Shown: positions 4,395 through 62,447 of the stretch, piece by piece
Layout: each line of letters opens with the position of its first letter
How positions within the stretch are numbered: the first letter of the stretch is position 1
Assembly (NCBI GenBank): GCA_963720265.1
Contig: CAVRET010000001.1
Location: 455,113-519,112 of the forward strand
DNA from: an uncultured bacterium
Lineage (GTDB): Bacteria; Patescibacteriota; Saccharimonadia; UBA4664
Length of the DNA: 64,000 bases
Reading direction: 5' to 3'
Made by a program: the position numbers and the translations under genes
Notes under the pieces: generated by a model
Databases searched by the model: none
What the model was told of the DNA's origin: nothing
What the model saw: only the letters and a program-made list of their open reading frames with translations

Positions 4395-5594
4395 TCACCG
4401 CCAGCGGATCTTGGCGCCCACGTACCAGGGAGGCACTTCACCGTTCTGAAGCGGTCCGGTGCCGTGCCGGGTGAATGGTTTTTCATCCTGGGCGGGAGCG
4501 CTACTGGCACGGCGTTTGGCGCCGGCCCGCTTCTTGATTCGGATCTCAAGGTTGCCGCCGTAGATACCGCGCACTGCTACCTTGCCGTCGACCGTGAGCT
4601 CGCACATGAGCTCGATACCATGATCGAGTGTCGGTATCTGCGTGGCCGCCTGATAATCGGCGAGCCGCATCCGGATGGTACCGGTTGGTACCTGCTCCTC
4701 GCCGTCGGGGCGAAGGCTGTAGGCTACCGGCAGCGACAGGCTAGCCTTGGGCGTCACGACGACGATCTTATCGGGCGAGAGCGCCAGGCCCGGATCGCGG
4801 AACATCCAGTCCGGCGCGAAATTGTTGCGGTCGAGCGCCAGGTTTACCGCATCGACGTCGCACAGGTTGGCGGCATTGGCGGCGCCGAGTCTGTCAGCAT
4901 AGAATGCCGCCAGCGACCCATCGGTGATGAGTTCGATGATCTCGTGGCCGCCCGACCTGATCCAGAGCTGGACTTGGAGGGTCCGAATCTGGTTATTGAA
5001 AAAGGTATCGCGGTGGTAGATCGACCCGTTCAGGAGTTCTCGCACTACCACGCCGATGAACGCGCCTTCAATCTCGGCAATGAGATTGCGCACGCGCCGG
5101 AGGCAAGCCGTTGCCTCCGGGTAGCCCGTGGGCCTCCAGTGGTCATACAGCCTGGCCACCACCCTACGAGCCTGCTCGAGAGCGGCGTCAAGTTCGCTCA
5201 CGCACACGTGGCGGGTTCGGAGCGTACTTGCCTGTGCTGCGAGCTCGGCCAGATCGGCGGCCAGCGTGTCGTAGTTCTCGACACGCCTTTGCCGTTTGGC
5301 ATGCTCGGTGTAGTGATACTGAAGGCTCGACGCTACGGGAGTGTCGCAAACTTCTTCGCCAGCTGCATCGACCACCACATAGGTGCGCCTCCAGATGGAG
5401 ACGGCTGGATCGATTTCGATTGCGATCAGGTCGTCTGGATGGGCGACCAGCATCGGCGGCACGATGGTCCGTGCGCACAGCCCATAGTCATCCTCATAGC
5501 GTACATGTACCAGGTGTCCGCGGACCTCGACCGAAAAAGCCGACGGCAGCGTGTTGACATCTCCCACGGCAAACCCCTTCCGCTGATTTTTCAA
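4395..5594 (-). CDS. Hypothetical protein (399 aa), function unknown
   Basis: Long ORF with balanced amino-acid composition on the minus strand. The overlapping plus-strand ORF 4302..5636 is Arg-rich and antisense-like. No recognisable family motif. Confidence 0.5.
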   Translation of the reverse strand: MKNQRKGFAVGDVNTLPSAFSVEVRGHLVHVRYEDDYGLCARTIVPPMLVAHPDDLIAIEIDPAVSIWRRTYVVVDAAGEEVCDTPVASSLQYHYTEHAKRQRRVENYDTLAADLAELAAQASTLRTRHVCVSELDAALEQARRVVARLYDHWRPTGYPEATACLRRVRNLIAEIEGAFIGVVVRELLNGSIYHRDTFFNNQIRTLQVQLWIRSGGHEIIELITDGSLAAFYADRLGAANAANLCDVDAVNLALDRNNFAPDWMFRDPGLALSPDKIVVVTPKASLSLPVAYSLRPDGEEQVPTGTIRMRLADYQAATQIPTLDHGIELMCELTVDGKVAVRGIYGGNLEIRIKKRAGAKRRASSAPAQDEKPFTRHGTGPLQNGEVPPWYVGAKIRWR

Positions 5595-5624
5595 TCGGAT
5601 TCTAAATTTATTAGCTGTCCTGCG

Positions 5625-6815
5625 TTAATTGACTAGCTTGTAGAATTCGGTTTTTCCAATGTTGATCTCGTCGCCGGGCTTCACGGCTTGCGCCGGGTCG
5701 GTCACAGTTTCGCCGTTTAAGCGGATGCCGTTTTGCTCTATAAGTGTGCGGACCTGGTTGCGCGAGAGTTTAATCCCCTGCTCCACCAGCAGATCGATGA
5801 GAACGGCCGGCTTTTTGTCGACTTTGAGCTCTTTGATCATATCCTTGGTGGGGCCCAGGTGATCACGGAAGGTGGCGTTCCAGGATTCCTCGGCTTTAAG
5901 GGCTGCTGTGTCCCCATGGTAGAGGCGCACGATTTCGCGCGCGAGCGAGGCCTTGGAGTCGCGCGGGTTGGCGCCTTCGGCCAGGGTTTTTACCAGGCCG
6001 TCAATGGTTTCGAGCGGAATATCGGTGCAGAGCTTGTAGTAGGGAGCGATGAGGTTGTCCGGAACGCTCATGACTTTACCGTACATATCGATGGGCGCGT
6101 CGGTGACGCCGACGTAGTTGTCGAGTGACTTGGACATTTTTTTGACGCCATCGAGGCCAACCAGCAGGTCCAGGGTAAAAACGATCTGTGGGCGCTGGCC
6201 GAGTTTCTTTTGCAGTGCACGGCCGGCCATGAGGTTAAAGAGTTGATCCGAGCCACCAAATTCGACGTCGGCTTCGAGCGCCACTGAGTCGTAGGCTTGC
6301 ATGAGCGGATAGAGCACCTCGTGCAGGGCCAGCTCGTGGCCCTCGCTCAAGCGCTTTTTGAAGTCATCACGTTCGATGGTTTGAGCAACCGAAACGTTTG
6401 AAGCCAAATTGAGCAAATCAGCAAAGCTCAGCTTGGCCAGCCATTCGGAGTTATAGCGGATTTCGGCTTTCTTAACATCCAGGAGGAGGTCAACCTGATC
6501 GAGATAGGTTTTAACATTTTCGGCAATGTCCTTGTCGGACAGCATCGGCCGGGTCTTGTCGCGCCCGGACGGGTCCCCTACTTTCGTGGTGTAGTCGCCG
6601 ATGAGAAAGATGACGGTATGGCCAAGCTCTTGGAATTTGCGGAGTTTGTGAAGTACGAGTGCATGACCAATGTGGAGATCCGGCCGTGTGGGATCGACGC
6701 CAAATTTGATCCGCAGCTTGTGCTTTTTGCCGGTGAGGGCGGCTTCAAGTTCTTCGCGGCCAATAATTTGGTCAACGCCGCGGGTGAGGAGATCGGTGAG
6801 ATCGGATTTGTCCAT
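5625..6815 (-). CDS. tyrS: Tyrosine--tRNA ligase
   Basis: 396 aa with class I aaRS HIGH (PDLHIGH), KMSKS (KKMSKS), and a C-terminal S4-like domain. Confidence 0.9.
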   Translation of the reverse strand: MDKSDLTDLLTRGVDQIIGREELEAALTGKKHKLRIKFGVDPTRPDLHIGHALVLHKLRKFQELGHTVIFLIGDYTTKVGDPSGRDKTRPMLSDKDIAENVKTYLDQVDLLLDVKKAEIRYNSEWLAKLSFADLLNLASNVSVAQTIERDDFKKRLSEGHELALHEVLYPLMQAYDSVALEADVEFGGSDQLFNLMAGRALQKKLGQRPQIVFTLDLLVGLDGVKKMSKSLDNYVGVTDAPIDMYGKVMSVPDNLIAPYYKLCTDIPLETIDGLVKTLAEGANPRDSKASLAREIVRLYHGDTAALKAEESWNATFRDHLGPTKDMIKELKVDKKPAVLIDLLVEQGIKLSRNQVRTLIEQNGIRLNGETVTDPAQAVKPGDEINIGKTEFYKLVN

Positions 6816-6870
6816 ATGCCGCTAAGTGTAGCAGAGGGAGCAAAGATTTTTTAGTGGGGAGATGATTATG

Positions 6871-7789
6871 AACCTGAGTCTCAAAACCCCCACATCAGCT
6901 GGTAGCTGAGCAGAATGCGGACATAGTGAACGAAGTAGCCCATGACACTTCGCGGAAATGAGCTGACGAGGTTCAAATGTTCTTTTAGGTAGTCAAAGGT
7001 GCATTCAACCTTGGGCCGCCTGCGAAGCAGGAGGCCCTGCCAGCTGGCCATGGGCTGCTTCTGGTTGCGTCGAGCGGGAGCCAGTATGTAGGTCTGGTGC
7101 AGATCCCACATCTTCTTGCTCATGACTTTGGCCAGGTAACCACCGTCACCCACGGCAATGACAGTTGCGTCGTTGACCAAATGTGGTATTTGCTGCGAGT
7201 CACTCTCATTGGCCGGCGTAAACCAGATGGCGCACAGACTGCCGTTGGCGGCGCAGCTGGCATGGAGCTTAAAACCAAAATGCCACCCTTGGTGGTTCAT
7301 ACCAAAGTCGGCCACTCCTTGGGCGACTTTGTGCCGGTCGGCCCGGACTAGCTTGCAGACCTCAAGCATGGTTGAGTCCATGAAGACGAGAGGCGCGTCC
7401 TTGACCAACAACTGGTCGAGCATGATGAGCATCTGAGGCAGAGCCAGGTGGCATTTACGGACCCACGATTGGTAACTGGGCAAGTGGAACCGGCGGTAAT
7501 AATACGTTTGGGACCAGATATATACACCCTTGAGGGTGCGTTGCGGGGCTACCAGGCAGCTAAATACCAGTAGGGCAACGCACTCATTTTGGTGCAAGAT
7601 GACGGGGCGGCCGCCCAGGGGATTTGCCGGCTGCCTCGGAAAGAAGCTATCTACCACCTCAACCAGTTTGACGATATGATGAGCACGTAAAAGACGCATT
7701 TGCTATTTCCTTGTTTGTTTTTGTCGACGTAACAAGGACAGCCTAGCGTCTTTTTACTTTGGTGGTCCAGGGGTTTTGAGACTCAGGTT
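6871..7789 (-). mobile_element. Insertion sequence, IS5/IS982-like, ~919 bp, with perfect 20-bp terminal inverted repeats AACCTGAGTCTCAAAACCCC and a 4-bp target-site duplication TATG (6867-6870 and 7790-7793)
   Basis: Left end 6871-6890 equals the reverse complement of right end 7770-7789. The flanking TATG direct repeats are seen directly. Encloses a single DDE transposase ORF. Confidence 0.8.
6881..7699 (-). CDS. DDE transposase of IS5/IS982-like family
   Basis: 272-aa ORF entirely inside the IS, with the stop codon inside the left IR. Contains a DDE_Tnp_1-like signature including ...VIAVGDGGYLAK... (the D-x-G-Y motif). Confidence 0.7.
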   Translation of the reverse strand: MRLLRAHHIVKLVEVVDSFFPRQPANPLGGRPVILHQNECVALLVFSCLVAPQRTLKGVYIWSQTYYYRRFHLPSYQSWVRKCHLALPQMLIMLDQLLVKDAPLVFMDSTMLEVCKLVRADRHKVAQGVADFGMNHQGWHFGFKLHASCAANGSLCAIWFTPANESDSQQIPHLVNDATVIAVGDGGYLAKVMSKKMWDLHQTYILAPARRNQKQPMASWQGLLLRRRPKVECTFDYLKEHLNLVSSFPRSVMGYFVHYVRILLSYQLMWGF

Positions 7790-19477: not shown

Positions 19478-21301
19478 CTATGTGACTACCTTTCCGAACC
19501 AGGAGATCAGCGCGTCCAGGCCAGGGCGGTGACCCTGCTTGCGCAGCGTGTTCATGAGGCAGAACATCTCCGGTAGATGCTGTTCCAGAATTCGCGCCCG
19601 CCTGGTCCAAGCCTGATCCTGGCTGCGCCTTGCGCTCAGCAACAGACCGATCCAGGCAGTTCGCTCGGTTGGGTCGAGATAGATGCCTTGGCAATACAAC
19701 GCCAAGGCATTGTCATACTCGCCGCGCGCGAAGCAATCATCTGCCGGGATGGGTTCAAGCCCATATCCCGTTGACTCGATCTGGGCGGCCCGCTCAAGGA
19801 GACCAACCAAGAACAGCGATTGCGCCCGCTCTTCCGGCTTGACCGCTTCCGCTTCGAGTACAAAGCGCAGCACGGTCGGGTTCTGCTCTGCGAGGTACGC
19901 GGATACGGCCGCTTCGATGTCTGCGGGCATAAAGCGCCGGTTGCGCAGTTGCCACATGGTTTCGTTGCACAGGTTGACGTCGTTTGCCGCAGCTTGCACT
20001 GCCGGTGACGCCGTGATTTCGATGGACTGCAGTGTCGTGATCGTTGCCTGAATGAAAACGGTCCAGGCTGGGCCGAGATGGCCGCGGGCCAAGAGCTCCG
20101 TCGCGGTATTGATGGTGGGTTCGTACCACCTCGCGAGATCGGCGGCGGCGGACGCGTGGTACCTGGCGGGACCATGTTCAAGTAGACCATGCCAGAAGCT
20201 GATCTGAACCGCAAAGGCCAGCACGCCATGCAATACTCCAAGCGTGGGCCGGGGATCGTCGCGCCACGGCGCGAACATTGTGGCCCTGCTTTCGTTTGGC
20301 GGGTAGACCCTGAGAAGTTCGTTGAGCAGCCCATGCTCGGTCTCGTGAAGCATGAGCCGCGCCAGGGTTACGGCATCAGGAGGTTCGGTCAGTGCCATGC
20401 CCCCGGGGCAGTCATCGATGGTAGAACTGCGCTCATCTCCTTCGTTTACCGGCTCGATGGGTGTCAGGCTAATAAGCAACCTTTTCACCCGCTCGAATCC
20501 GACCGGATCGCAGGCGGCGAGTATCTGACATGCCTCTGCAAAGAGAGCTTGCCAATGACCTGCATTGGTGATGCGTGCCCACTCGGCCGGCGGGTGAACA
20601 TTTCTGTACTGGTCCAGGTCATCGAGAACGACCTCATACCCGCTCGCCGGATCCTGAAGTCGTATGAACGACAGCCACGGAGGCTCGCTGGTGAGACTTG
20701 ATGCGAGCCTGACGTGATGATCGGCTTCAGCCAGGTCGAGTGCGACGCCGTCGCTTGACAGCCGCACCAAGCGGTCAGGCTCATCAGCCTCCATGATCGT
20801 GACGAGCCCTAGTGTCGGCAGAACGAGCGCGCCATTACGGACTGGTACCGGGAGATCGAAGGCCATCTGGGCACGGATGGCCATGGCGGCCAGCAGCGAA
20901 TTGAGGTGGCCGGCCATGAGTGTGAAATCTGGAGACTCCGTTTCTCTCGGGTCGTCGATTGCCCTGAGGATTTGGTTGGCCCAGTGCAGCGAAGTGGGCT
21001 GGCCGTAGAAGTATTCGTACATCAGCTCGGGGAAATCTTCCCCCAGCTTGATGAACAGCTCAACAGCCATGTCCATGCTCAGGCTTGCCGCTTGCGGCAA
21101 ATGAGGAAGCTCGACTACGACAACGCCGAGCTGGTGAACAGCATGCTGCAACCTGATCCTGCGAATTGCTTCGAGCAGGCCCGTCGCTTGGGCATTGGCT
21201 GTGCGAAAGTGTGACAGATACGGTTCGAGCGGTGAGACAACACCGTCGTCGGCTCCCATCTTAGGCCTTCCTGTTTGAGGTGCTTCCTTTGCTGGTTGCA
21301 A
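19478..21301 (-). CDS. HExxH-motif (zincin-like) putative metallopeptidase or peptide-modifying protein with C-terminal TPR-like repeats
   Basis: 607-aa ORF with LMLHETEHGLLNEL (HExxH plus nearby acidic and His residues) and C-terminal helical repeats (ALALYCQGIYLDPTERTAWIGLLLS). No other family motif recognised. Confidence 0.55.
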   Translation of the reverse strand: MQPAKEAPQTGRPKMGADDGVVSPLEPYLSHFRTANAQATGLLEAIRRIRLQHAVHQLGVVVVELPHLPQAASLSMDMAVELFIKLGEDFPELMYEYFYGQPTSLHWANQILRAIDDPRETESPDFTLMAGHLNSLLAAMAIRAQMAFDLPVPVRNGALVLPTLGLVTIMEADEPDRLVRLSSDGVALDLAEADHHVRLASSLTSEPPWLSFIRLQDPASGYEVVLDDLDQYRNVHPPAEWARITNAGHWQALFAEACQILAACDPVGFERVKRLLISLTPIEPVNEGDERSSTIDDCPGGMALTEPPDAVTLARLMLHETEHGLLNELLRVYPPNESRATMFAPWRDDPRPTLGVLHGVLAFAVQISFWHGLLEHGPARYHASAAADLARWYEPTINTATELLARGHLGPAWTVFIQATITTLQSIEITASPAVQAAANDVNLCNETMWQLRNRRFMPADIEAAVSAYLAEQNPTVLRFVLEAEAVKPEERAQSLFLVGLLERAAQIESTGYGLEPIPADDCFARGEYDNALALYCQGIYLDPTERTAWIGLLLSARRSQDQAWTRRARILEQHLPEMFCLMNTLRKQGHRPGLDALISWFGKVVT

Positions 21302-30831: not shown

Positions 30832-33800
30832 CTAGGTACGAGAAATTTGGCTCTCACCAACGAGAGCTGCGAGTTGGCTTAGGAGCTCATCGGTGATGGT
30901 AATACGAAACGGCAGGCGGATTTTCTTGGGCTGGTCAGTCCCTAGTAAGAGGTAGGCCTGGTCCGGGCCGTCGTGGGCCGAGAGAATGCGCTTGAGCTCG
31001 TGTAGGAGCTCGGCGTTGTTAAGGTCGGCCAGGCGCAAGGTAATGATGCCGGGTGTGACCACCGTGCCAGGGGCAGGGGCGGGCGCAGGCTTTGGCAGCA
31101 TGGCCTTACGTGGCAGGTGAACGGACTCGGATGGGCTGCTGGTTTTGGGTGCAGGGCGCTGGGCAGCTTGGGCGCGCGCAAGATTGTAGTCGGCGATACG
31201 AGCTGAATCCACCATTACTTTGGGCTCTGAAGTGAGGCGGCCGTCGCGATCTTTGGCCGAGATCTTGCCAGCGGCAATAATGACGTTGTCGGTCTCATAG
31301 ACCTCCGGGGAAGCCTCATAGGCCTTGGGGAAGACAATGAGCTCGGTGACGCCGGATTTGTCTTCCAGGCCGACAAAAGCCATGGTGGCGCCGTTTTTGG
31401 TGGTGATTTTACGCACCATGGTAATAAGGCCACCGACGCGCACGACTTTGCCGTCGCCTTCAGGCGTGATGCGGCTTAAGGCCTGGGTTTGGCCGGATAG
31501 GTAGCTCTCGTAGTCGTCGAGCGGATGCCTGCTCAGGTAGAGGCCAAGCAATTCGCGTTCCCAGCCGAGTTGCTCGCGGTTTGAGGTGGGCTGGGGCGGC
31601 GAATCGAGGCGCAGGGCCGGGGCGCTGTCTTCGGCTCCCAGACTGCCAAAGATGTCAATCTGGCCGGACAGAGCGTTTTTTTGCGACTTGGCGGCATAGG
31701 CGGTAATGGTGTCGAGATTAAAGAGCAACTGGCCGCGGTCGTTTGCAATGAGATTGTCAAAGGCACCGCATTTGGCCAGGGATTCCCAAACTTTTTTGTT
31801 GCACTCACGGGCGCTGACCCGTTTGGCAAAATCTTCAACGCTAGTGAACCGGCCGTCCTCGCGGGCGAGCAGGATAGCTTCGATCGGTCCGGAGCCAATA
31901 TTTTTTACCGCTGACAGCCCAAACCGAATGCTGGTTTTATCCGGTGCAACAGAAAACTCAAGCACGGATTCGTTGACATCCGGCGGTAAGACCGTAATGC
32001 CCAGCCGCTGGCACTCGGCTACTTCAATAGCGATGCGGTCAATGTTGCCGTAGTCGCTGGTGAGCAATGCTGCCATAAAGGCTGAGGGGTAATGGGCCTT
32101 GAGGTAGGCAGTTTGGTAGGCGATAAGCGCGTAGCAGGCCGAGTGGGCCTTGTTGAAGCAGTAGGCGGCAAAGGCTTCGAGTTGCTCCCACAGCTCTTCC
32201 ATGAGCGCGCGGTCGGCACCCACGGTTTGAATGGCGCCCTCGATGAAGTCGTTTTTGATTTTGGCCATGAGCTTGGGGTCTTTCTTGCCAATGGCCTTGC
32301 GCAAGGTGTCGGCCTGGCCGCCGGTGAAGCCGCACATCTCCTTGGAGATCTGCATGACCTGTTCCTGGGTGACCATAACGCCGTAGGTGGACTTGAGGGC
32401 GTTTTCCATGGCCGGGTGGAGGTACTCGATTTTTTTGCGACCGTGCTTGCGCTCAATGAAGTCGTCAATCCACTGAATAGGACCGGGGCGGTAGAGCGCC
32501 ACCATGGAGATAATGTCATCGAACACCGTGGGCTCAAGTTCGCGCAAATAACGCTTCATCCCGGCTGATTCAACCTGGAACACGCCGGTGGTGTCGCCGC
32601 GCGACAGCAGCGCGAAGGTAGCGGCGTCATCGAGCGGGATGGTAGCGATATCAATGGTTTGGCCATAGACCTCGCGCACGAGCTTTAAGGTGTCATTGAT
32701 AATGGTGAGGTTAGACAGACCCAGGAAATCCATTTTGAGCAGGCCGAGTTCTTCGACCGCATGGAGTTCGAATTGCGTGCAAATGCCGCCTTTTTGGGCG
32801 CGCTGGAGCGGGGCATAGTTTACGACCGGTTCGGGCGCAATCACGACACCGGCGGCGTGAATGCCGTTTGAGCGAATCGTACCCTCGAGGCGGGTGGCCT
32901 GATCGATGAGAGTTTTGGCGCGGGGGTTGGTACCAGTATTCTTTAACCAGCTCGGGATCGGGCGTCTGCTCGCCGCCTTTACCTGGTTGAATACCAGCCG
33001 ACACGGCTAGCGGCACGTGGCGACCCTGGACCGGCATAGGCACGAGTTTGGCAATGCGGTCGACCTCGTCGTAGCTCATGCCCAGTACGCGGCCGGTGTC
33101 GCGCACCGAGTTTCTGGCCGCCATGGTGCCGAAGGTAATGATTTGCGCCACGCGTTCGGCACCATATTTCTCAGTTACATAATCGATAACCTCGCCGCGG
33201 CGAGTGTCTTGGATATCAATATCAATATCAGGCATGGAGACGCGGTCGGGGTTTAAGAAGCGCTCAAACAGCAAATCGTACTTAATGGGGTCGAGGTCGG
33301 TGATGTTCATAACGTAGGCCACAATGGAGCCGGCCGCACTCCCCGCCCTGGGCCGAAGATAATGCCCTGGTTTTTGCCCCAGTTTATGAAGTCGGCGGTA
33401 ATCAGGAAGTAGCCGTCGTATCCCATTTTGGCAATGACCCCGAGCTCGTATTCGAGCCGTTCGACGGCAGCGTGATCAACGAGTTTTCTGGCCTTGTCTT
33501 CCGTAATGTGAGCAATGTCTTCCTTGGGAATGCCGCCGTAGCGCCAGGCCAGGCCTTGCCAGCAGAGATGATGCAAGTATTCGCGCTCGGCTTTGAATTC
33601 CTTGGGGACCTCGAACGTAGGGATGAGAATGCGGCCGAGCTCGATCTCGACGTTGCAGCGCTCAGCGATTTTAACCGTATTTGCAAGTGCCTCAGGTACA
33701 TGGGCAAAGCGTTCAGCGATTTCCTCTGGGCTTGAGACATAGAGGTCCATTTCCATTTTCATGCGATTGGGGTCGGACAGCTCTTTGCCGGTCTGGACGC

Positions 33801-34524
33801 ACAGCAAAATCTCGTGAGCTTCGCGCTCCTCGGGACGCGAATAGTGCGAGTCGGCCGTGACGACAAGTGGAATGCCGGTTTTGCGTGAGAGCTCGATTTT
33901 GGCTGCATTAAGCTTTTTTTGCATATCCCATTGATGCTCGTGAGCCTGTAGCTCGAGGAAGTAATTACCCCGGCCGAAGGTTTCATCGTACCAGCGGGCG
34001 ACGTTTTCGGCCTCAGCCAGATTGCCGGATTCAATATGGCCAGCTACTTCTCCACCGGCACAGGCGGAGAGTGCAATGAGCCCTTCGTGATATTTAGCCA
34101 GCAGCTCACGGTCGACGCGCGGCTTGTAGTAGTAGCCTTCGAGCTGGGCAATGGTGACAAGCCGCATAAGGTTGTGGAAGCCGGCCGTTGTTTCGGCGAG
34201 CAGTATGAGGTGATAGGGGTTGGCATCCTGGCGCCCGGCTTTGTCGAGGTGGGTGCGCGGCGCCACGTAGGTTTCGACACCAATGATGGGTTTGATATCC
34301 CTTTTCCCCGCCTCTTTGTAAAACTCAATGGCGCCGGACAGCGTACCGTGGTCGGTGAGCGCCACGGCTGTCATGCCAAGCTCGGCCACGCGGTCGAGCA
34401 TGCGGGGGACTTTTTGCAGCCCGTCGAGGAGCGAGTAGTGGCTGTGGTTGTGTAAGTGGACAAATCCCGGCTTGGTACCGGCTTTTGGCACAACTTCAAC
34501 CTTCCCCTCGCTCACTTCGGGCAC
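30832..34524 (-). pseudogene. dnaE: DNA polymerase III alpha subunit DnaE, interrupted by two apparent frameshifts. One is a 1-nt deletion in the GPGRGSAAGS motif near 33329-33334. The other is a +1/-2 indel at a C5/G5 run near 32922-32932.
   Basis: Three consecutive ORFs (33307..34524 PHP domain; 32711..33322; 30832..32844) translate to contiguous DnaE sequence when frames are switched. The conserved GPGRGS reads GPGRG-V in frame, and [21 protein letters not shown] is encoded out of frame relative to the upstream EYW. Confidence 0.75.
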
Positions 34525-56873: not shown

Positions 56874-57016
56874 AAAGATCTATCAAGAGTGCGGCGAGGG
56901 ACCTAGCCCTGCGACCCGCCGGCAACCTGCGGAACTCGCAAGGTGCCACATCTAGCCCGGACCCGGGAAGATAGCATTTATGCGCCTTTCTTGCCGGATG
57001 TCCGGGAGAAAGGTTT
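56874..57016 (+). promoter_or_regulatory. SAM-I (S-box) riboswitch with terminator-type expression platform, directly upstream of metK
   Basis: The S-box core motifs are present: ATCAAGAGtGCGGCGAGGGAC...GCCC...CCCGCCGGCAACC...GGTGCCA...AAGATAG. The P1 closing helix is CTATC/GATAG. Then comes the hairpin CCTTTCTTGCCGGATGTCCGGGAGAAAGG followed by TTTTTT and, at 57020, the ATG. Confidence 0.8.
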
Positions 57017-57019
57017 TTT

Positions 57020-58177
57020 ATGTCATACCAAATGTTTGCCTCTGAGTCGGTGTGCGCCGGACACCCGGATAAACTGTGCGACCAGATTTCGGATGCGATT
57101 GTGGATGCACTGTTGGAGCAGGACCCACTGGCCCGAGCCGCCGTAGAGGCGGCTGTGACCCGAAACCGGGTGATGCTGCTTGGCGAGGTGTCAACGCGGG
57201 CGGCGGTAGATTACGAGGCGGTGGCGAGGGCGGAGATTCGCAGGCTCGGGTATACGAACCCTATGATCGGCTTTGATGACAAGGCCCAGATTGATGTGTA
57301 TATCGGCACCCAGTCAACTGAGATTGCAGCTGGAGTGGACGCCGATGGGGCCGGTGACCAAGGGATGATGTTTGGCTATGCCTGCCATGAAACCCCTGAA
57401 TATATGCCGCTTGCGATCATGTTGGCACACCGGCTGACACGAACGCTTGATGCGGCCCGGGAGTCGGGTGATTTACCTTATTTGCGGCCGGACGGCAAGG
57501 CGCAGACGGTAGTACGCTACGAGAATGAACGGCCGGTGGAGGTTGTGCACGTCACGATCGCTGCACCGCATGATGAAGCGGTGCTGCTTGAGACGGTGAG
57601 ACGCGATGTATACACACAGGTAGTGCAGCCGGCTCTGGCGGCGTACGGCTTTCACTTAGCACAGCGGAATTTGGTCGTCAACGGCACCGGAGTGTGGCAC
57701 GCGCCGGGGCCGGCGAGCGACGCTGGACTGACTGGGCGAAAAGTGGTGGTTGATGGTTACGGCGGTGTCGCCCGGGTGGGCGGCGGCGCCTTTAGCGGCA
57801 AAGATCCCACCAAGGTCGACCGTTCAGCGGCGTACGCCGCGAGGTATTTGGCCAAAAATATCGTGGCAGCCGGCCTGGCCGAGCGGGCCGAGGTAGCGCT
57901 CGCGTATGTGATTGGGCAGGCGCGGCCGGTCATGCAGACGGTTGAGACATTCGGGACCGAGGCCGTGCCATTATCCGAGATACAGGTGTTTATGGACAGC
58001 CTGCTCGATACGTCTGTGGCCGGAATTGTGACAGGTCTTAATTTGCGCCGGCCGATGTACCGGAATACGGCAGCGTATGGACATTTCGGGCGGACGGAAT
58101 TTCCGTGGGAGGCCGTTGTTAAAGATATAGGCAAGGAGTCGGACGGTGCGCCTGCCGGCATTCGGGTTTTGCGCTAA
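57020..58177 (+). CDS. metK: S-adenosylmethionine synthetase
   Basis: GAGDQGMMFGYA, GGGAFSGKDPTKVDRS, 385 aa. Confidence 0.9.
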   Translation: MSYQMFASESVCAGHPDKLCDQISDAIVDALLEQDPLARAAVEAAVTRNRVMLLGEVSTRAAVDYEAVARAEIRRLGYTNPMIGFDDKAQIDVYIGTQSTEIAAGVDADGAGDQGMMFGYACHETPEYMPLAIMLAHRLTRTLDAARESGDLPYLRPDGKAQTVVRYENERPVEVVHVTIAAPHDEAVLLETVRRDVYTQVVQPALAAYGFHLAQRNLVVNGTGVWHAPGPASDAGLTGRKVVVDGYGGVARVGGGAFSGKDPTKVDRSAAYAARYLAKNIVAAGLAERAEVALAYVIGQARPVMQTVETFGTEAVPLSEIQVFMDSLLDTSVAGIVTGLNLRRPMYRNTAAYGHFGRTEFPWEAVVKDIGKESDGAPAGIRVLR

Positions 58178-59016
58178 GCTACGGTCACACCGCTGAGGTC
58201 AGCTTTGGCGCCCTTGAGCAGGGCGTAGGTGATTTTGTCCATGGTGGCGCCGTCGAAATTGGCATCTTTGACCTCGGAGTGGTGGAACGAAAGATTGATC
58301 AGGTTAGCGCCTTTAAACATGGCGCGCTTGAGCGAAGTCGTATTAAAAGCGATGGTATCGAGTGTTAGGCCCTCGAACGACAACCCGGACAGATCAGAGC
58401 TCGTGAACTCAGTTTTGATAAGCGTAGTACCGCTTAATGTCGCGCCCCGCAAGGCCGAGGACTTGAACGTGGCAGCGGTGAGATTAGCACCGGTGAAATT
58501 GGTGTTTTGGAGGTCGCTGCCGGCAAACGAAGCGCCCTCAAGATTGGCGTTCACAAACGATGTGTCCTTAAGTGCGGCAGCTCGGAATTTGGCGCGGCTA
58601 AGATTCGAGCGATCGAAGTTGGAACCTTTCAGCTGACTCATGCTGAAGTCGGCGCCAGACAAATCGGAATCACTGAGGTCGCTGGTAGCAAGATCAGCGG
58701 TGGCAAATTTGGAATGGCTTTTCTTGGCCAAACGCAAGGTCTGCCTGAGTGACCTCTTTGATTCCTCGGTTGGCGTCTGCGGTTCGGCGGCGGCACTCGC
58801 AGACTGATGCGGGACGTGCTCCATGATTTCGGTGACATTACCAAACGACTCAATTGTTGCCCGGTAGGCTTCGTCGTCGCTCATGCCCTGGGCCTTAAAA
58901 TCGGCGTACTTTGCTTCAAGGTTGCTTTGCAGCTCGAGCAATACGTCGGTACGCGACGGGAAGTTGCCGTAGGGCGAAAATTGCTGGGCTAAGAAGGTTT
59001 GTAATTGCTTTTCCAT
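58174..59016 (-). CDS. HAAS-like N-terminal helical domain fused to pentapeptide-repeat domain
   Basis: The N-terminus (...TDVLLELQSNLEAKYADFKAQGMSDDEAYRATIESFGNVTEIMEH) resembles PadR-associated HAAS/DUF1048-type modules. The C-terminus carries ~30 tandem A(D/N)LxG pentapeptide repeats. It is the gene following padR on the same strand. Confidence 0.6.
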   Translation of the reverse strand: MEKQLQTFLAQQFSPYGNFPSRTDVLLELQSNLEAKYADFKAQGMSDDEAYRATIESFGNVTEIMEHVPHQSASAAAEPQTPTEESKRSLRQTLRLAKKSHSKFATADLATSDLSDSDLSGADFSMSQLKGSNFDRSNLSRAKFRAAALKDTSFVNANLEGASFAGSDLQNTNFTGANLTAATFKSSALRGATLSGTTLIKTEFTSSDLSGLSFEGLTLDTIAFNTTSLKRAMFKGANLINLSFHHSEVKDANFDGATMDKITYALLKGAKADLSGVTVA

Positions 59017-59029
59017 GGTGACTCCTTGG

Positions 59030-59377
59030 TTAAATTAATTGATCCAATATGCGTTTGGCAAAATCCCAGTTGTTCTTGTTGGCAAGGTAGAGCTCGCGGC
59101 CGCTTGTAGTAATGTGGTAATACTTGCGGCGGCCGCCCTGCGACTCATCGCCCCAGTACGAGGTGATGTGGCCGTCGGTCTCAAGACGCTTGAGGCTTGA
59201 ATACATGGTGGCTTCTTTGAGCTCGTAGAGATTGTTCGAGCGCTCACCAATGAGCTTAGTGATCTCGTAGCCGTATTTATCGCCGCTTTGGAGCAAGCCC
59301 AGGATAATCGTGTCGGTGTGGCCGCGCAGGAGGTCTGATGATAGTTGGGAGTTGGTCATAATTGGAATGTATATCAT
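59030..59377 (-). CDS. PadR family transcriptional regulator
   Basis: ...GHTDTIILGLLQSGDKYGYEITKLI...YSSLKRLETDGHITSYW... is a canonical PadR winged helix. Confidence 0.8.
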   Translation of the reverse strand: MIYIPIMTNSQLSSDLLRGHTDTIILGLLQSGDKYGYEITKLIGERSNNLYELKEATMYSSLKRLETDGHITSYWGDESQGGRRKYYHITTSGRELYLANKNNWDFAKRILDQLI

Positions 59378-59497
59378 ATTACTATGACTGTCAAGGTATT
59401 GTGACTGATACTCTGCGTTAGGCCTAGTATTTATTCTTTGTTTTCCGTTATAATTTGATTAGTTCAACCTATTTGCTGCAAAATTGCAACTCGAGAG

Positions 59498-60388
59498 GTG
59501 AGAACGTTGAGAGCTAAACTAAGCGCTACAACAGCCGAGCTACACGCCTTGACCGAGCTGATGAGCAGGAGCTTCCTCGGCGAGGGAAAGTGGTCCATGG
59601 TCTGGAAAATGTTGGCCCGCAATGGCGCGCCGTATGCCGTCAAGGTCGTGAGAGATGACCTATCGGCTAATGAGGCCGAATCGGCGAGAAGATACCTGCT
59701 TCACGAGATGGGCGTTTTGGCCCGGCTGAGCGGCCGGGTGGAAGGAATCCCCAGTTACCGCGGCGGGTATCCGGGAGTGCCCGCGCTTTGCCTCGAATAT
59801 GTCGAGGGCTCGAGCCTCGCATTGCTGGACCTCCACAATGAGGTGGTCCCGGTAGACCAGGCATGCGACGTTGGCAAGGATGCCGCACGGATTCTGGCTG
59901 AGATTCACCGCTTGGGCGCGATTCACGGCGACATCGGGCTGAGCAATGTCATGTTGACGGATGACGGGCGAACCTTCCTGGTCGACTTCGGAGGCTGCCG
60001 TATCCTCCCTGACAGTGAGCTTTTGCGCATGTCCCACATGCCGGAGCTCGTACCCCAAGCCGCCAGGCTTTGCAAGGGGTCTCCGGCCTTCGCGAGTCCG
60101 GAACGGGCACTTGGGCGCCCGGTAGTCCCGCGGTCTGACGTTTACTCGCTGGCCGCGATGCTCTACGTGATGATGACCGGTCAGCCGGTGTTCGGCGGTG
60201 CGGATAAGCTGACGGTGTACGCTCGGCATATCGCCGCAGTACCCCGTCCGATTTCTGAGCTCATGGATATACCGGCGGAGCTCGCCGGGATCATCATGGC
60301 CTGTCTGAGAAAGCAGGCGAAGCGGCGCCCGTCGGCCGCTCAGCTGGCCCAAGCGTTGGCAGAGTGGGCGAGCGCAGAAGCGGCTTGA
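59498..60388 (+). CDS. Serine/threonine protein kinase-like protein (HGD variant of the catalytic loop)
   Basis: VAIK-like YAVKVV, catalytic loop IHGDIGLSNVML, DFG (VDFGGC), APE-like ASPE; non-ATG (TTG) start likely. Confidence 0.6.
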   Translation: MRTLRAKLSATTAELHALTELMSRSFLGEGKWSMVWKMLARNGAPYAVKVVRDDLSANEAESARRYLLHEMGVLARLSGRVEGIPSYRGGYPGVPALCLEYVEGSSLALLDLHNEVVPVDQACDVGKDAARILAEIHRLGAIHGDIGLSNVMLTDDGRTFLVDFGGCRILPDSELLRMSHMPELVPQAARLCKGSPAFASPERALGRPVVPRSDVYSLAAMLYVMMTGQPVFGGADKLTVYARHIAAVPRPISELMDIPAELAGIIMACLRKQAKRRPSAAQLAQALAEWASAEAA

Positions 60389-60533
60389 CGTCGGCTCGCC
60401 GGCGGAGGTTTTCTGCGAAATGGCCAGGTCCGGCACTCTCGTGCCGGACCTGGCCATTGGCTTATTGACAACCATGGCGCCCAGATGTGACACTGAGTTT
60501 TACTAACAAGTGTGGGCGGTAAAGGAGGATGTT

Positions 60534-60944
60534 ATGGCTGTACAAAACAATAACCCCACGAGCTGGGTGGGTTGGGTCTATTTCGCCAGCTTTATGATGA
60601 TTTTGCTCGGGGTTTTACAGGGTATATCGGGGCTAGCCGGCATTTTCCACGGCTCATATTATCTTGTGACCCAATCTCATCTGCTCGTGTTTGATTTCCG
60701 GACCTGGGGCTGGATCAACCTCATTCTTGGCGTCATCATTTTGATCGCCGGGTTTGAGCTCTTACGCGGCGCCGTGTGGGCGCGGATTGTGGGCGTGTTT
60801 TTGGCGATTTTGAGCTTCGCCGCCAACATGAGCTTTATTAACGCCTACCCGATTTGGTCGATTATCATGATGATTGTAGATGTGCTGATCATCTATGGGC
60901 TCAGCGTGCACGGCGGTGAGCTTAGGGACCGGAATCAGTATTAG
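60534..60944 (+). CDS. Hypothetical membrane protein (4 TM)
   Basis: Start at MAVQNNNPTSWVGWVYFASFMMILLG; hydrophobic helices. Confidence 0.45.
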   Translation: MAVQNNNPTSWVGWVYFASFMMILLGVLQGISGLAGIFHGSYYLVTQSHLLVFDFRTWGWINLILGVIILIAGFELLRGAVWARIVGVFLAILSFAANMSFINAYPIWSIIMMIVDVLIIYGLSVHGGELRDRNQY

Positions 60945-61499
60945 TTAATACACATATGGAATAAACATTTTGGTGCGCTGCTTGTAGCTTAAGTATTCGC
61001 GGCCAAGCTCAGTACCGAGAAATGCTTCTTCTTGATAGCTGGCATAGATGAAATAGGCTGCCATGACCGCAAACGCCACGATGAGCAGGTACGAGACAGC
61101 CAGGAAGGTGCCAATTCCCGCAAGTAGTATACCGGAATAGATTGGGTGGCGGATCCAGCGGTAGGGACCCTTGGTAATGAGTTGCGGCCGCGATGACTGC
61201 GTCATGGGCATACCCCATTGGCGTGCCAAATATGCCCTAGCCCAGAAGGCGATGCCAATACCAAGTACTGTCATGGCTGCACCCAGCCAGCGCACCACAC
61301 TGCTGGCATATGCGGGCTGGGTCCAGTTAGCATCGGTAATGTGTGCAGCACCAATTACCGCCACAACAATTAACAAACGTACCCAAGCGCCTCTGGCCAG
61401 GGCCCGCGGTGAACCCGGCTGTCTGGCCGCTATGGCCGCGATGAGCCAAGCCACCACAAATGCGATCCAGCATAAGCCGACGATGGTGCGTATGATCAT
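60945..61499 (-). CDS. Isoprenylcysteine carboxyl methyltransferase (ICMT)/phospholipid methyltransferase family membrane protein
   Basis: ...RHPIYSGILLAGIGTFLAVSYLL... and C-terminal EE..LG.EY; 184 aa. Confidence 0.65.
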   Translation of the reverse strand: MIIRTIVGLCWIAFVVAWLIAAIAARQPGSPRALARGAWVRLLIVVAVIGAAHITDANWTQPAYASSVVRWLGAAMTVLGIGIAFWARAYLARQWGMPMTQSSRPQLITKGPYRWIRHPIYSGILLAGIGTFLAVSYLLIVAFAVMAAYFIYASYQEEAFLGTELGREYLSYKQRTKMFIPYVY

Positions 61500-61514
61500 A
61501 CCGGTATTGTACGA

Positions 61515-62447
61515 CTAAAATCCGAAGGCTCGCCACCACCGTTGCTGCGGGACCCGCGGGTAGCCGCCCCCTGTGGTGTAAGGGCTCGTGGTGTCTCTTT
61601 GCCAGCGGCCAATGCCCTCGCCGTGCCGGTACCAGTGGCCGGAAGGCGACTGACCGGAAGTTGAACTAGCCGAGGTGCGCGTAACCGTGAAGCCCCCACC
61701 GCCTGAGCTCCCGGAGACTGACACAAGGGCGAGGCCTGCTTGGCTCGCCATAGTGTAGGACTGGGCGCCGGCCTGGCTTAGGTTTTCGGCAGTGCCATCG
61801 GTGGTCGTGCTCGCATTGGTGAAGGTGACGCTACCGAAATTATCGAGCGGTACCTGGCCGGCGCCGTCTGAGGGGTCTTCTTCGATCCATTCGGCTGAAG
61901 AATTGGTGGAGTTGTAATAGGTTTGGGTTTCAAAGCTTTGGCCAGTGGTTGTATCGGTCAGTTGAATAGTCCACAATCCGGATCCATCTTGGCTTAAGCC
62001 GGCCTGCATGTGGTCGCCGGGGTTTACGGATATGGTTTGGATGGTGGTTTCAGAGTCCGGCAAAAGCTCATAGAAGGCGGTGGATTGGGTAGAGCCGTCG
62101 GGATTTACCTGGTCTTGGGTGCCAACTTGGATGAGGTCAGTTGAATCCATACCGCCAATGCCGATCCAGGCGGCGTCGGCGGAATCAGGGTCTGCGCTTG
62201 ATGCCTGCGGCACGGTCCAGGCGCCGGATACAGCAGTGTAGTTGCTTCCGGTGACCGCGTAACCTGACCAGTTGGCCGTGGTATTTTCGAGACCGCCGCC
62301 TGTGGCGTTCGTTTGCGGCGCCGGCTGCGTACCGGCCGTTGATACAACCAGGCCCGACCCACCGGTCGAAACATGCACGCTGGGGAGCGCACCTTTTACC
62401 AGTACGGCTGATGCCACGAGACTTATGAGAAGGAGAACTTTTGCCAT
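61515..62447 (-). CDS. Secreted peptidase G1 (eqolisin/scytalidoglutamic peptidase A4)-like protein
   Basis: Signal peptide MAKVLLLISLVASAVLV; motifs NWSGYAV, AAWIGIGG, AEWIEEDP resemble the glutamic peptidase family; Ser/Thr/Gly-rich C-terminal region. Confidence 0.55.
   Translation of the reverse strand: MAKVLLLISLVASAVLVKGALPSVHVSTGGSGLVVSTAGTQPAPQTNATGGGLENTTANWSGYAVTGSNYTAVSGAWTVPQASSADPDSADAAWIGIGGMDSTDLIQVGTQDQVNPDGSTQSTAFYELLPDSETTIQTISVNPGDHMQAGLSQDGSGLWTIQLTDTTTGQSFETQTYYNSTNSSAEWIEEDPSDGAGQVPLDNFGSVTFTNASTTTDGTAENLSQAGAQSYTMASQAGLALVSVSGSSGGGGFTVTRTSASSTSGQSPSGHWYRHGEGIGRWQRDTTSPYTTGGGYPRVPQQRWWRAFGF

Follow-up and report, generated by a model that had tools for sequence, protein, structure and literature searches.

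What does a PadR-type regulator control when the gene behind it encodes a helical domain fused to a pentapeptide-repeat β-helix? The question arises at one locus of an uncultured bacterium (GTDB lineage Bacteria; Patescibacteriota; Saccharimonadia; UBA4664), in a 64-kb stretch of GenBank assembly GCA_963720265.1 (contig CAVRET010000001.1, positions 455,113 to 519,112 of the forward strand) that we analysed as a whole; we call this stretch the window, and all coordinates refer to it. In the window, padR is followed by the fusion gene and faces a divergently transcribed, atypical Hanks-type kinase gene (Table 1). A first-pass annotation had read this arrangement as an uncommon architecture and proposed that the kinase might form a small signalling unit with the pair. 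Our analysis points elsewhere: the locus is probably an autorepressed operon of an LmrR-like PadR protein in which the fusion protein, carrying a HAAS-like domain and pentapeptide repeats, acts as co-regulator, placing it in the class of HAAS–PadR dyads with one-step signalling.

The coupling of the two genes is tight in the window and conserved beyond it. The padR stop codon lies 13 nt from the ATG of the fusion gene, and a promoter and terminator scan, used together with direct reading of the sequence for this gap and for the padR–kinase spacer, found neither a promoter nor a terminator between padR and its partner. Given so short a gap, the AAGGAG within it and the lack of intervening signals, a two-gene operon with co-transcription of padR and the HAAS–pentapeptide gene is the default reading. 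Six of six homologues looked up, Cohnella candidum included, had a 104–115-amino-acid PadR gene 9–14 bp upstream on the same strand. We extended this to a neighbourhood set of 84 non-redundant loci, 68 of them evaluable for PadR and 67 for downstream genes: PadR lay immediately upstream in 67 of the 68, across gaps of 8–22 bp and in lineages named Saccharimonadia, Dojkabacteria and Bacillota. The earlier claim that padR is immediately followed by the fusion gene was therefore borne out, both by the 13-bp gap with its Shine–Dalgarno sequence and by this conservation. HAAS domains are by definition always encoded beside a stand-alone PadR-like winged helix–turn–helix (wHTH) gene, as signalling partners of PadR (PMC11237479), and such a gene adjoins the fusion gene here.

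The PadR open reading frame (ORF) matched PF03551 (E 1.4e-21; 77 bits, cut-off 27). Its start is most likely the ATG at 59359, yielding 109 amino acids, because homologous loci carry the 109-amino-acid call and conserve the spacing of −10 element, 6 nt and ATG. The resulting protein has the N-terminal wHTH and single C-terminal dimerization helix of the LmrR-like PadR subfamily 2 at its usual length of ~110 amino acids. It aligned without gaps to LmrR residues 3–106 (104 residues; 3f8b, E 4e-27), keeps a Trp at the position of LmrR W96 and is far more distant from the LftR-like Bce3449 (4esb, E 6.5e-8) than from LmrR. In LmrR, W96 is the Trp reported to form the drug pocket (Madoori et al. 2009). 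Within the family of pentapeptide pairs, the PadR proteins share ~73% pairwise identity and the pentapeptide partners ~50%; the former value parallels the near-invariance of the operator described below.

In the partner, NCBIfam model NF038403 (perm_prefix_1, permease prefix domain 1) matched residues 22–67 of the N-terminal helical domain (E 6.4e-13, 48 bits, cut-off 30). The name ‘permease prefix’ presumably goes back to the HAAS+MacB_PCD+FtsX architecture. NF038403 describes the domain at the N terminus of FtsX-type permeases, and that architecture is among those listed in the HAAS paper (PMC11237479). We aligned this N-terminal domain from 33 full-length homologues and scanned each copy against Pfam; HAAS (PF22564) was the commonest family, matching 15 of them (best E 1.3e-4). 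A profile search of a large protein database with this domain returned mostly short fragments, under the NCBI name ‘permease prefix domain 1-containing protein’. AlphaFold2 (AF2) placed the same four helices (Table 1) in the full-length protein (predicted local distance difference test (pLDDT) score 91) and in the N-terminal domain alone (pLDDT 89.5), and the domain is conserved from candidate-phyla-radiation lineages to Paenibacillus. Foldseek comparison of the N-terminal model with the PDB gave nothing significant, a PDB sequence search with the N-terminal profile gave spurious repeat and coiled-coil matches only, and no structural relationship to DUF1048 (PDB 2O3L) emerged. From the NCBIfam model and transitivity through the family, without a direct Pfam match, we conclude that the N-terminal domain is HAAS-like.

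Beyond a linker of variable length across the family (isoelectric point 10.4 in the window protein), the remainder is a pentapeptide-repeat domain (PF13599: E 2.3e-32, 111 bits, cut-off 38; PF00805: E 1.4e-24, 86 bits, cut-off 20). Residues 100–259 form 32 in-register pentapeptides of the tandem A(D/N)LXX type with alternating central Phe and Leu, in agreement with the ~30 repeats fused to a helical N terminus that had been described at the outset. The AF2 model of this domain is a right-handed quadrilateral β-helix (pLDDT 93–99) ending in a C-terminal helix, the C-terminal motif holding most of the invariant columns of the family, and Foldseek matched it to HetL, QnrB1, EfsQnr, AlbG, MfpA and Np275/276. 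No membrane segment was found in the 280-amino-acid protein, its top Kyte–Doolittle 19-residue window reaching 0.6, which confirms the earlier description of a soluble fusion devoid of the usual membrane domain. With a net charge of −2 in the window protein and −0.4 on average in the family, the repeat domain is close to neutral, and for this reason we do not favour the idea that it mimics DNA.

Homologues are numerous and cross phylum boundaries. The full-length protein had 1326 sequence matches, of which the best were 50–56% identical over the full length, several of them named Candidatus Saccharimonadia, Saccharibacteria, Chromulinivoraceae and Dojkabacteria; those from Bacillota (Paenibacillus, Cohnella, Fictibacillus and others) also aligned over the full length, at 30–38% identity. 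A metagenome scan with the family alignment recovered at least 489 encoding loci, and a scan of a genome collection with the single protein recovered four distant pentapeptide proteins only. Ravi et al. 2024 (mSystems, PMC11237479), who defined the HAAS–PadR dyad and proposed a mechanism for its signalling, had already tabulated the architecture, as ‘PadR-like-wHTH->HAAS+Pentapeptide->’, for Bacillus muralis (AOH56696.1). With this entry and these counts, ‘uncommon’ does not describe it: the PadR–HAAS+Pentapeptide architecture is published and widespread, not rare, and the window holds an ordinary member.

Only one gene recurs downstream of the pair. A DrrAB-like exporter (ABC ATPase plus ABC-2 permease) follows directly in 24 of the 67 evaluable loci; the other downstream genes occurred once or in very small clusters, often in the opposite orientation, and in about two-thirds of loci, the window included, the pair stands alone. 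At one related locus (L009) the pair is flanked by divergent DrrAB-like ABC genes (1536–2429(−) and 685–1536(−)). There it is followed by the gene for a 745-amino-acid UvrA-like ABC protein (5284–7521(+)) with a faint UvrA_DNA-bind match, reminiscent of DrrC-type daunorubicin resistance.

The spacer separating padR from the kinase gene is 147 bp long and, as first described, AT-rich (GC 0.35 versus 0.57 for the window). Judged by conservation, its significant regulatory DNA is a 19-bp putative operator, TACCTTGACAGTCATAGTA, which had been missed in the first-pass annotation. At up to three mismatches this sequence occurs once in the window, where 0 copies would be expected. It was the same in all six loci of the first set if A or T is allowed at the centre, and 59 of 67 loci carried it, with up to three mismatches, in the corresponding place, the family form 5′ of padR being TACCTTGACAG(n)CATAGTA; a pattern search for the operator gathered 69 non-redundant loci. 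Positions 1–11 and 13–19 are nearly invariant, whereas the partner proteins have meanwhile diverged to ~50% identity. Its symmetry is imperfect (TAC..TGnC-A-GnCA..GTA), and in the variant TACCTTGACAGGCGAGGTA the outer arms are symmetric (TACCT/AGGTA). Across ~60 related loci, with named relatives from Saccharimonadia to Bacillota, operator and promoter together follow the consensus TACCTTGACAGnCATAGTA-N8-TAYAMT, in which TAYAMT is the −10 form. The padR ATG lies 6 nt past the −10 in the window (ATG 59359) and in 51 of 59 related loci, and since the −10 is followed by just 6 nt and then the ATG, the padR mRNA appears to be leaderless. Eight Firmicute-like loci have the same promoter and operator with a GGAGG leader inserted before padR. 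PadR is thus a candidate to bind the 19-bp element and repress its own promoter; PadR repressors of Listeria are autoregulatory (PMC6624303). Near the exporters of related loci, no further operator copies of note were found.

These observations suggest a simple circuit. A dimer of the LmrR-like PadR protein would occupy the 19-bp imperfect palindrome over its own −35 and keep the operon repressed, an operon that in about one-third of relatives would extend into the DrrAB-like ABC-2 exporter. The cytoplasmic partner would contact PadR through its N-terminal three- or four-helix HAAS-like domain, and its pentapeptide β-helix would offer a sensing or docking surface, the signal probably being some toxic compound or a target hit by a drug. 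A changed state of the β-helix would then be relayed through the HAAS domain, releasing PadR and derepressing the operon, together with the exporter where one is present. The nearest experimental parallel is the control of the LieAB exporter by LftR (PadR) and LftS (DUF1048) in Listeria (PMC4517056, PMC11970672). We hold this sensor and co-regulator role to be likely, a grade that applies to the architecture-level claims and not to the split between sensor and effector.

Several findings weigh against this circuit. The Pfam families HAAS, DUF1700 and DUF1048 did not match the window copy, even when its N-terminal 112 amino acids were searched alone at E ≤ 10, and where the published motif is GxP, this family has G-(D/N)-(V/I): G59 does not vary among 71 sequences, and Val or Ile stands family-wide where the Pro would be. 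The first-pass annotation had likened the N-terminal ~60 amino acids to HAAS/DUF1048 and had named the lack of a HAAS/DUF1048 match as the finding that would count against it. In Pfam that lack is formally what we found; the resemblance stands through perm_prefix_1 and the HAAS matches of the relatives, which overrule it. The 64-kb window holds no ABC ATPase/ABC-2 permease homologue and no second operator copy, and so no exporter under control of the pair in the manner of the Listeria system considered next. In an analysis of PadR/operator covariation over related loci, no PadR residue covaried with the GCGAGG operator variant. In Listeria monocytogenes, where LftR (PadR) and LftS (DUF1048) control the LieAB ABC exporter (PMC4517056, PMC11970672), deleting LftS by itself produced no phenotype and LftS was dispensable for LieA repression (PMC4517056), which makes the part played by the co-regulator a subtle one even in that model system. 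Finally, the HAAS–PadR contact is one that we infer, for the window pair and for every pentapeptide-repeat member alike.

The pentapeptide protein could instead be chiefly an effector, shielding a toxin's target (DNA gyrase, for example) in the manner of Qnr, MfpA, AlbG or McbG, with PadR as an autorepressed, drug-responsive regulator and the HAAS domain adding feedback or tethering. The fold matches to the topoisomerase-protecting QnrB1, AlbG, MfpA and EfsQnr fit this idea, as do the frequent coupling of the pair to a DrrAB-like exporter and the one locus with a UvrA/DrrC-like ABC protein. In the roughly two-thirds of loci where the pair is alone, the pentapeptide protein would then be the sole non-regulatory product of the operon, and a PadR that retains the Trp of the LmrR drug pocket could detect ligands unaided. 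The equivalog models argue the other way, all scoring far under their cut-offs (penta_rpt_Qnr 62 of 240 bits, MfpA 43 of 360, HetL 64 of 260); the near-neutral repeat domain is not clearly DNA-mimic-like, and HAAS is by its published definition a signalling partner of PadR (PMC11237479). On balance we consider a primarily protective role, the main rival to the circuit above, unlikely.

The possibility that PadR, the HAAS–pentapeptide protein and the kinase form one signalling unit, through phosphorylation of PadR or the repeat protein or through co-regulation from a spacer palindrome, fared far worse. Like PknB, the kinase has a Pkinase domain (E 1.3e-26, 94 bits, cut-off 31.7) with the VAIK Lys, the αC Glu, DFG and SPE, and it also retains the catalytic Asp and Asn and the residues of subdomains IX and XI. 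Unlike PknB, it is a bare catalytic domain with no further domains, and its catalytic loop reads IHGDIGLSNVM in place of IHRDVKPANIM, with R→G and the catalytic-loop Lys→Gly. The HGD in place of HRD that had been noted initially was thus correct and understated, the catalytic-loop Lys being lost as well. In an alignment of PknB and 120 relatives, most of the relatives carry the canonical active-kinase loop HRDxKxxN, whereas the window kinase has neither the RD Arg nor that Lys; its HGDIGLSN resembles the HGDxxxxN of aminoglycoside- and choline-kinase-type enzymes, and the Pfam APH model matched residues 140–169 just under its cut-off (21.9 versus 23.2 bits). Two distant kinase relatives (P0143 and P0144) likewise have HGD and lack the Lys.

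The divergent arrangement across the AT-rich spacer, a kinase without a sensor domain, which would need a partner, and a Ser/Thr-rich repeat protein all speak for such a unit. Against this, a search of 86 related loci out to ~4 kb (phmmer, E ≤ 1e-5) turned up no kinase, nor did the six annotated neighbourhoods contain one, and among 5.8 billion sequences the kinase had no close homologue but its own database record, the next best being 34% identical. Its HRD Arg and catalytic-loop Lys are missing. The palindrome invoked by the first-pass annotation just before the kinase start, TGCAA-aa-TTGCA (TGCAAaaTTGCA), is present, but it is not conserved and is at chance level: counting inverted repeats with arms of at least 5 and loops of 0–10, we observed 3 in the 147-bp spacer against a mean of 2.07 in its shuffles, 33% of which reached 3. 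The operator lies ~50 bp from the sole −10-like TATAAT, found by eye where the scan called no plus-strand promoter, and would therefore not overlap a kinase promoter. With no kinase in the 86 related loci and the nearest relative at 34%, the link is unsupported and the shared unit very improbable; judged by these comparisons, the kinase lies outside the module and evolves independently of it, with a degenerate catalytic loop and adjacency as the one tie.

That the two genes are merely adjacent, the N terminus a generic helical bundle and the second gene an ordinary stand-alone pentapeptide-repeat protein of unrelated function, would suit the missing Pfam HAAS match on the window copy but is scarcely credible given PadR adjacency in 67 of 68 loci with 8–22-bp gaps across Saccharimonadia, Dojkabacteria and Bacillota, a perm_prefix_1 match above the curated cut-off and an N-terminal domain conserved from candidate-phyla-radiation lineages to Paenibacillus.

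A bolder form of the sensor and co-regulator reading is that the pair, with or without the DrrAB-like exporter, is a cross-phylum antibiotic-sensing cassette in which the β-helix, without binding the drug, reports a drug-poisoned target (gyrase or topoisomerase) through the HAAS domain to the LmrR-like repressor. We regard this as a doubtful, speculative extension. If it were true, target-state sensing would explain why the Listeria LftR/LftS paradigm shows no direct ligand binding, and antibiotic sensing would explain the commonness of the cassette in Saccharibacteria-like lineages, which have been described as epibionts of antibiotic-producing Actinobacteria. The near-invariant operator would then make the whole family addressable by a single reporter.

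Table 1. Features of the padR locus, with positions in the window
Feature	Position	Strand	Basis
metK	57020–58177	+	ORF
HAAS-like/pentapeptide-repeat fusion gene, 280 amino acids, predicted soluble	58174–59016	−	Domain models, AF2, hydropathy
Pentapeptide β-helix, 32 repeats, ~8 coils, with conserved C-terminal cap helix FDGATMDKITYALLKG	58177–58704	−	PF13599, PF00805
Linker, amino acids 67–104: disordered, then basic helix 84–98	58705–58818	−	AF2 pLDDT 41–76
N-terminal helical domain, amino acids 1–66, perm_prefix_1/HAAS-like	58819–59016	−	Helices 2–16, 22–42, 47–57, 61–65, break at G59
Shine–Dalgarno AAGGAG of the HAAS–pentapeptide gene, within the 13-nt gap past the padR stop	59022–59027	−	Read from sequence
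padR, LmrR-like PadR subfamily-2 repressor, 109 amino acids	59030–59359 (mechanical ORF to 59377)	−	PF03551, LmrR alignment
Predicted padR promoter: −35 TTGACA (59394–59389), 17-bp spacer, −10 TACATT (59371–59366)	59366–59394	−	Promoter scan
Putative PadR operator TACCTTGACAGTCATAGTA, 19-bp imperfect palindrome over the −35	59380–59398	−	Conservation
Palindrome of the first-pass annotation, TGCAAAATTGCA, chance-level	59477–59488	+	Shuffles
Atypical Hanks-type kinase, 293 amino acids from TTG 59507 (ORF from GTG 59498), judged outside the module	59507–60388	+	Pkinase

The surroundings of the locus are chromosomal, with recG, a PBP1A-family gene, a ClpB/ClpA-family chaperone gene, gatA, gatB, radA and dnaE all present in the window. 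Recent horizontal transfer of the pair or of the kinase was considered and rejected, the GC content at third codon positions of padR, its partner and the kinase gene being like that of the rest of the window. On the other side of the pair, metK and the pentapeptide gene converge with a 4-bp overlap, and a terminator-like hairpin past metK (58208–58226, plus strand) sits within the 3′ end of the pentapeptide gene. An S-adenosylmethionine (SAM) riboswitch (RF00162, 59.5 bits, E 2.9e-11; 56877–56977(+)) immediately 5′ of metK completes a classic S-box arrangement. Past the kinase, 60510–62447 encodes a DUF7144 membrane protein, an ICMT/PEMT-family methyltransferase and a peptidase A4, none of which recurred beside the PadR pair in other loci. 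Two observations lie farther away. The window dnaE may be split, frameshifted or interrupted: a 670-amino-acid ORF (30832–32844(−)) matches only the C-terminal part (~519–1143) of DNA polymerase III alpha models, and a 405-amino-acid ORF (33307–34524(−)) lies ~460 bp upstream of it on the same strand. A 607-amino-acid protein (19478–21301(−)) has an aKG-HExxH-type peptide beta-hydroxylase domain (TIGR04267, 7.9e-28), possibly marking a peptide-modification context like that of ribosomally synthesized and post-translationally modified peptides.

Of the picture drawn by the first-pass annotation, the pair proved real and tightly linked; its rarity, its tie to the kinase and the palindrome did not hold up. 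The locus by itself adds little, its architecture being both common and described before. What the comparison across the family contributes is, first, a near-invariant operator and promoter, which provide a binding-site hypothesis and a reporter design for PadR/HAAS signalling; second, a recurrent DrrAB-like ABC-2 exporter, a link that ties the pentapeptide subtype to the LftRS–LieAB drug-response paradigm; and third, a distribution not confined to Firmicutes, the subtype being abundant in Saccharimonadia-like candidate-phyla-radiation genomes with an apparently leaderless padR. The orphan kinase, non-RD and lacking the catalytic-loop Lys, is a curiosity beside these.

Among known systems, Qnr, MfpA, AlbG and McbG share with the window protein a quadrilateral β-helix of similar length and a C-terminal helix; the window protein differs in its extra N-terminal HAAS-like domain, its near-neutral repeats and its sub-cut-off scores. 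McbG is associated with the exporter McbEF, and exporter association is thus common to McbG and the relatives of the window pair. In Lactococcus lactis, lmrCD is repressed by the multidrug-binding PadR protein LmrR (3F8B/3F8C), which the window PadR resembles in the gapless 104-residue alignment and the W96-equivalent Trp; LmrR regulates an ABC exporter and itself, and unlike the window PadR it has no HAAS partner.

LftR/LftS resembles the window pair in joining a PadR repressor and a small helical co-regulator of the HAAS superfamily in one operon. Its target is an antibiotic-induced, daunorubicin-resistance-type ABC exporter of the kind encoded directly behind the pair in relatives of the window locus, whereas lieAB is unlinked to lftRS and LftS lacks pentapeptide repeats. 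For PadR regulators such as LmrR, a box ATGT-N8-ACAT has been reported (PMC4517056); the operator motif conserved here is a different one.

The closest counterpart is the HAAS+Pentapeptide dyad, placed ‘mostly in Firmicutes’ (PMC11237479), whereas the nearest relatives of the window protein come from metagenome-assembled genomes named Saccharimonadia, Saccharibacteria or Dojkabacteria. The window branch departs from the published dyad in a longer linker with a basic helix, a seemingly leaderless padR and G-(D/N)-(V/I), and the N-terminal domain of the window copy is detected by NCBIfam perm_prefix_1, not by Pfam HAAS. In both, padR comes first, the output domain is soluble and intracellular and the N-terminal helical domain stands beside a short stand-alone PadR (PMC11237479), and the Firmicute members align with the window protein over its full length at 30–38% identity.

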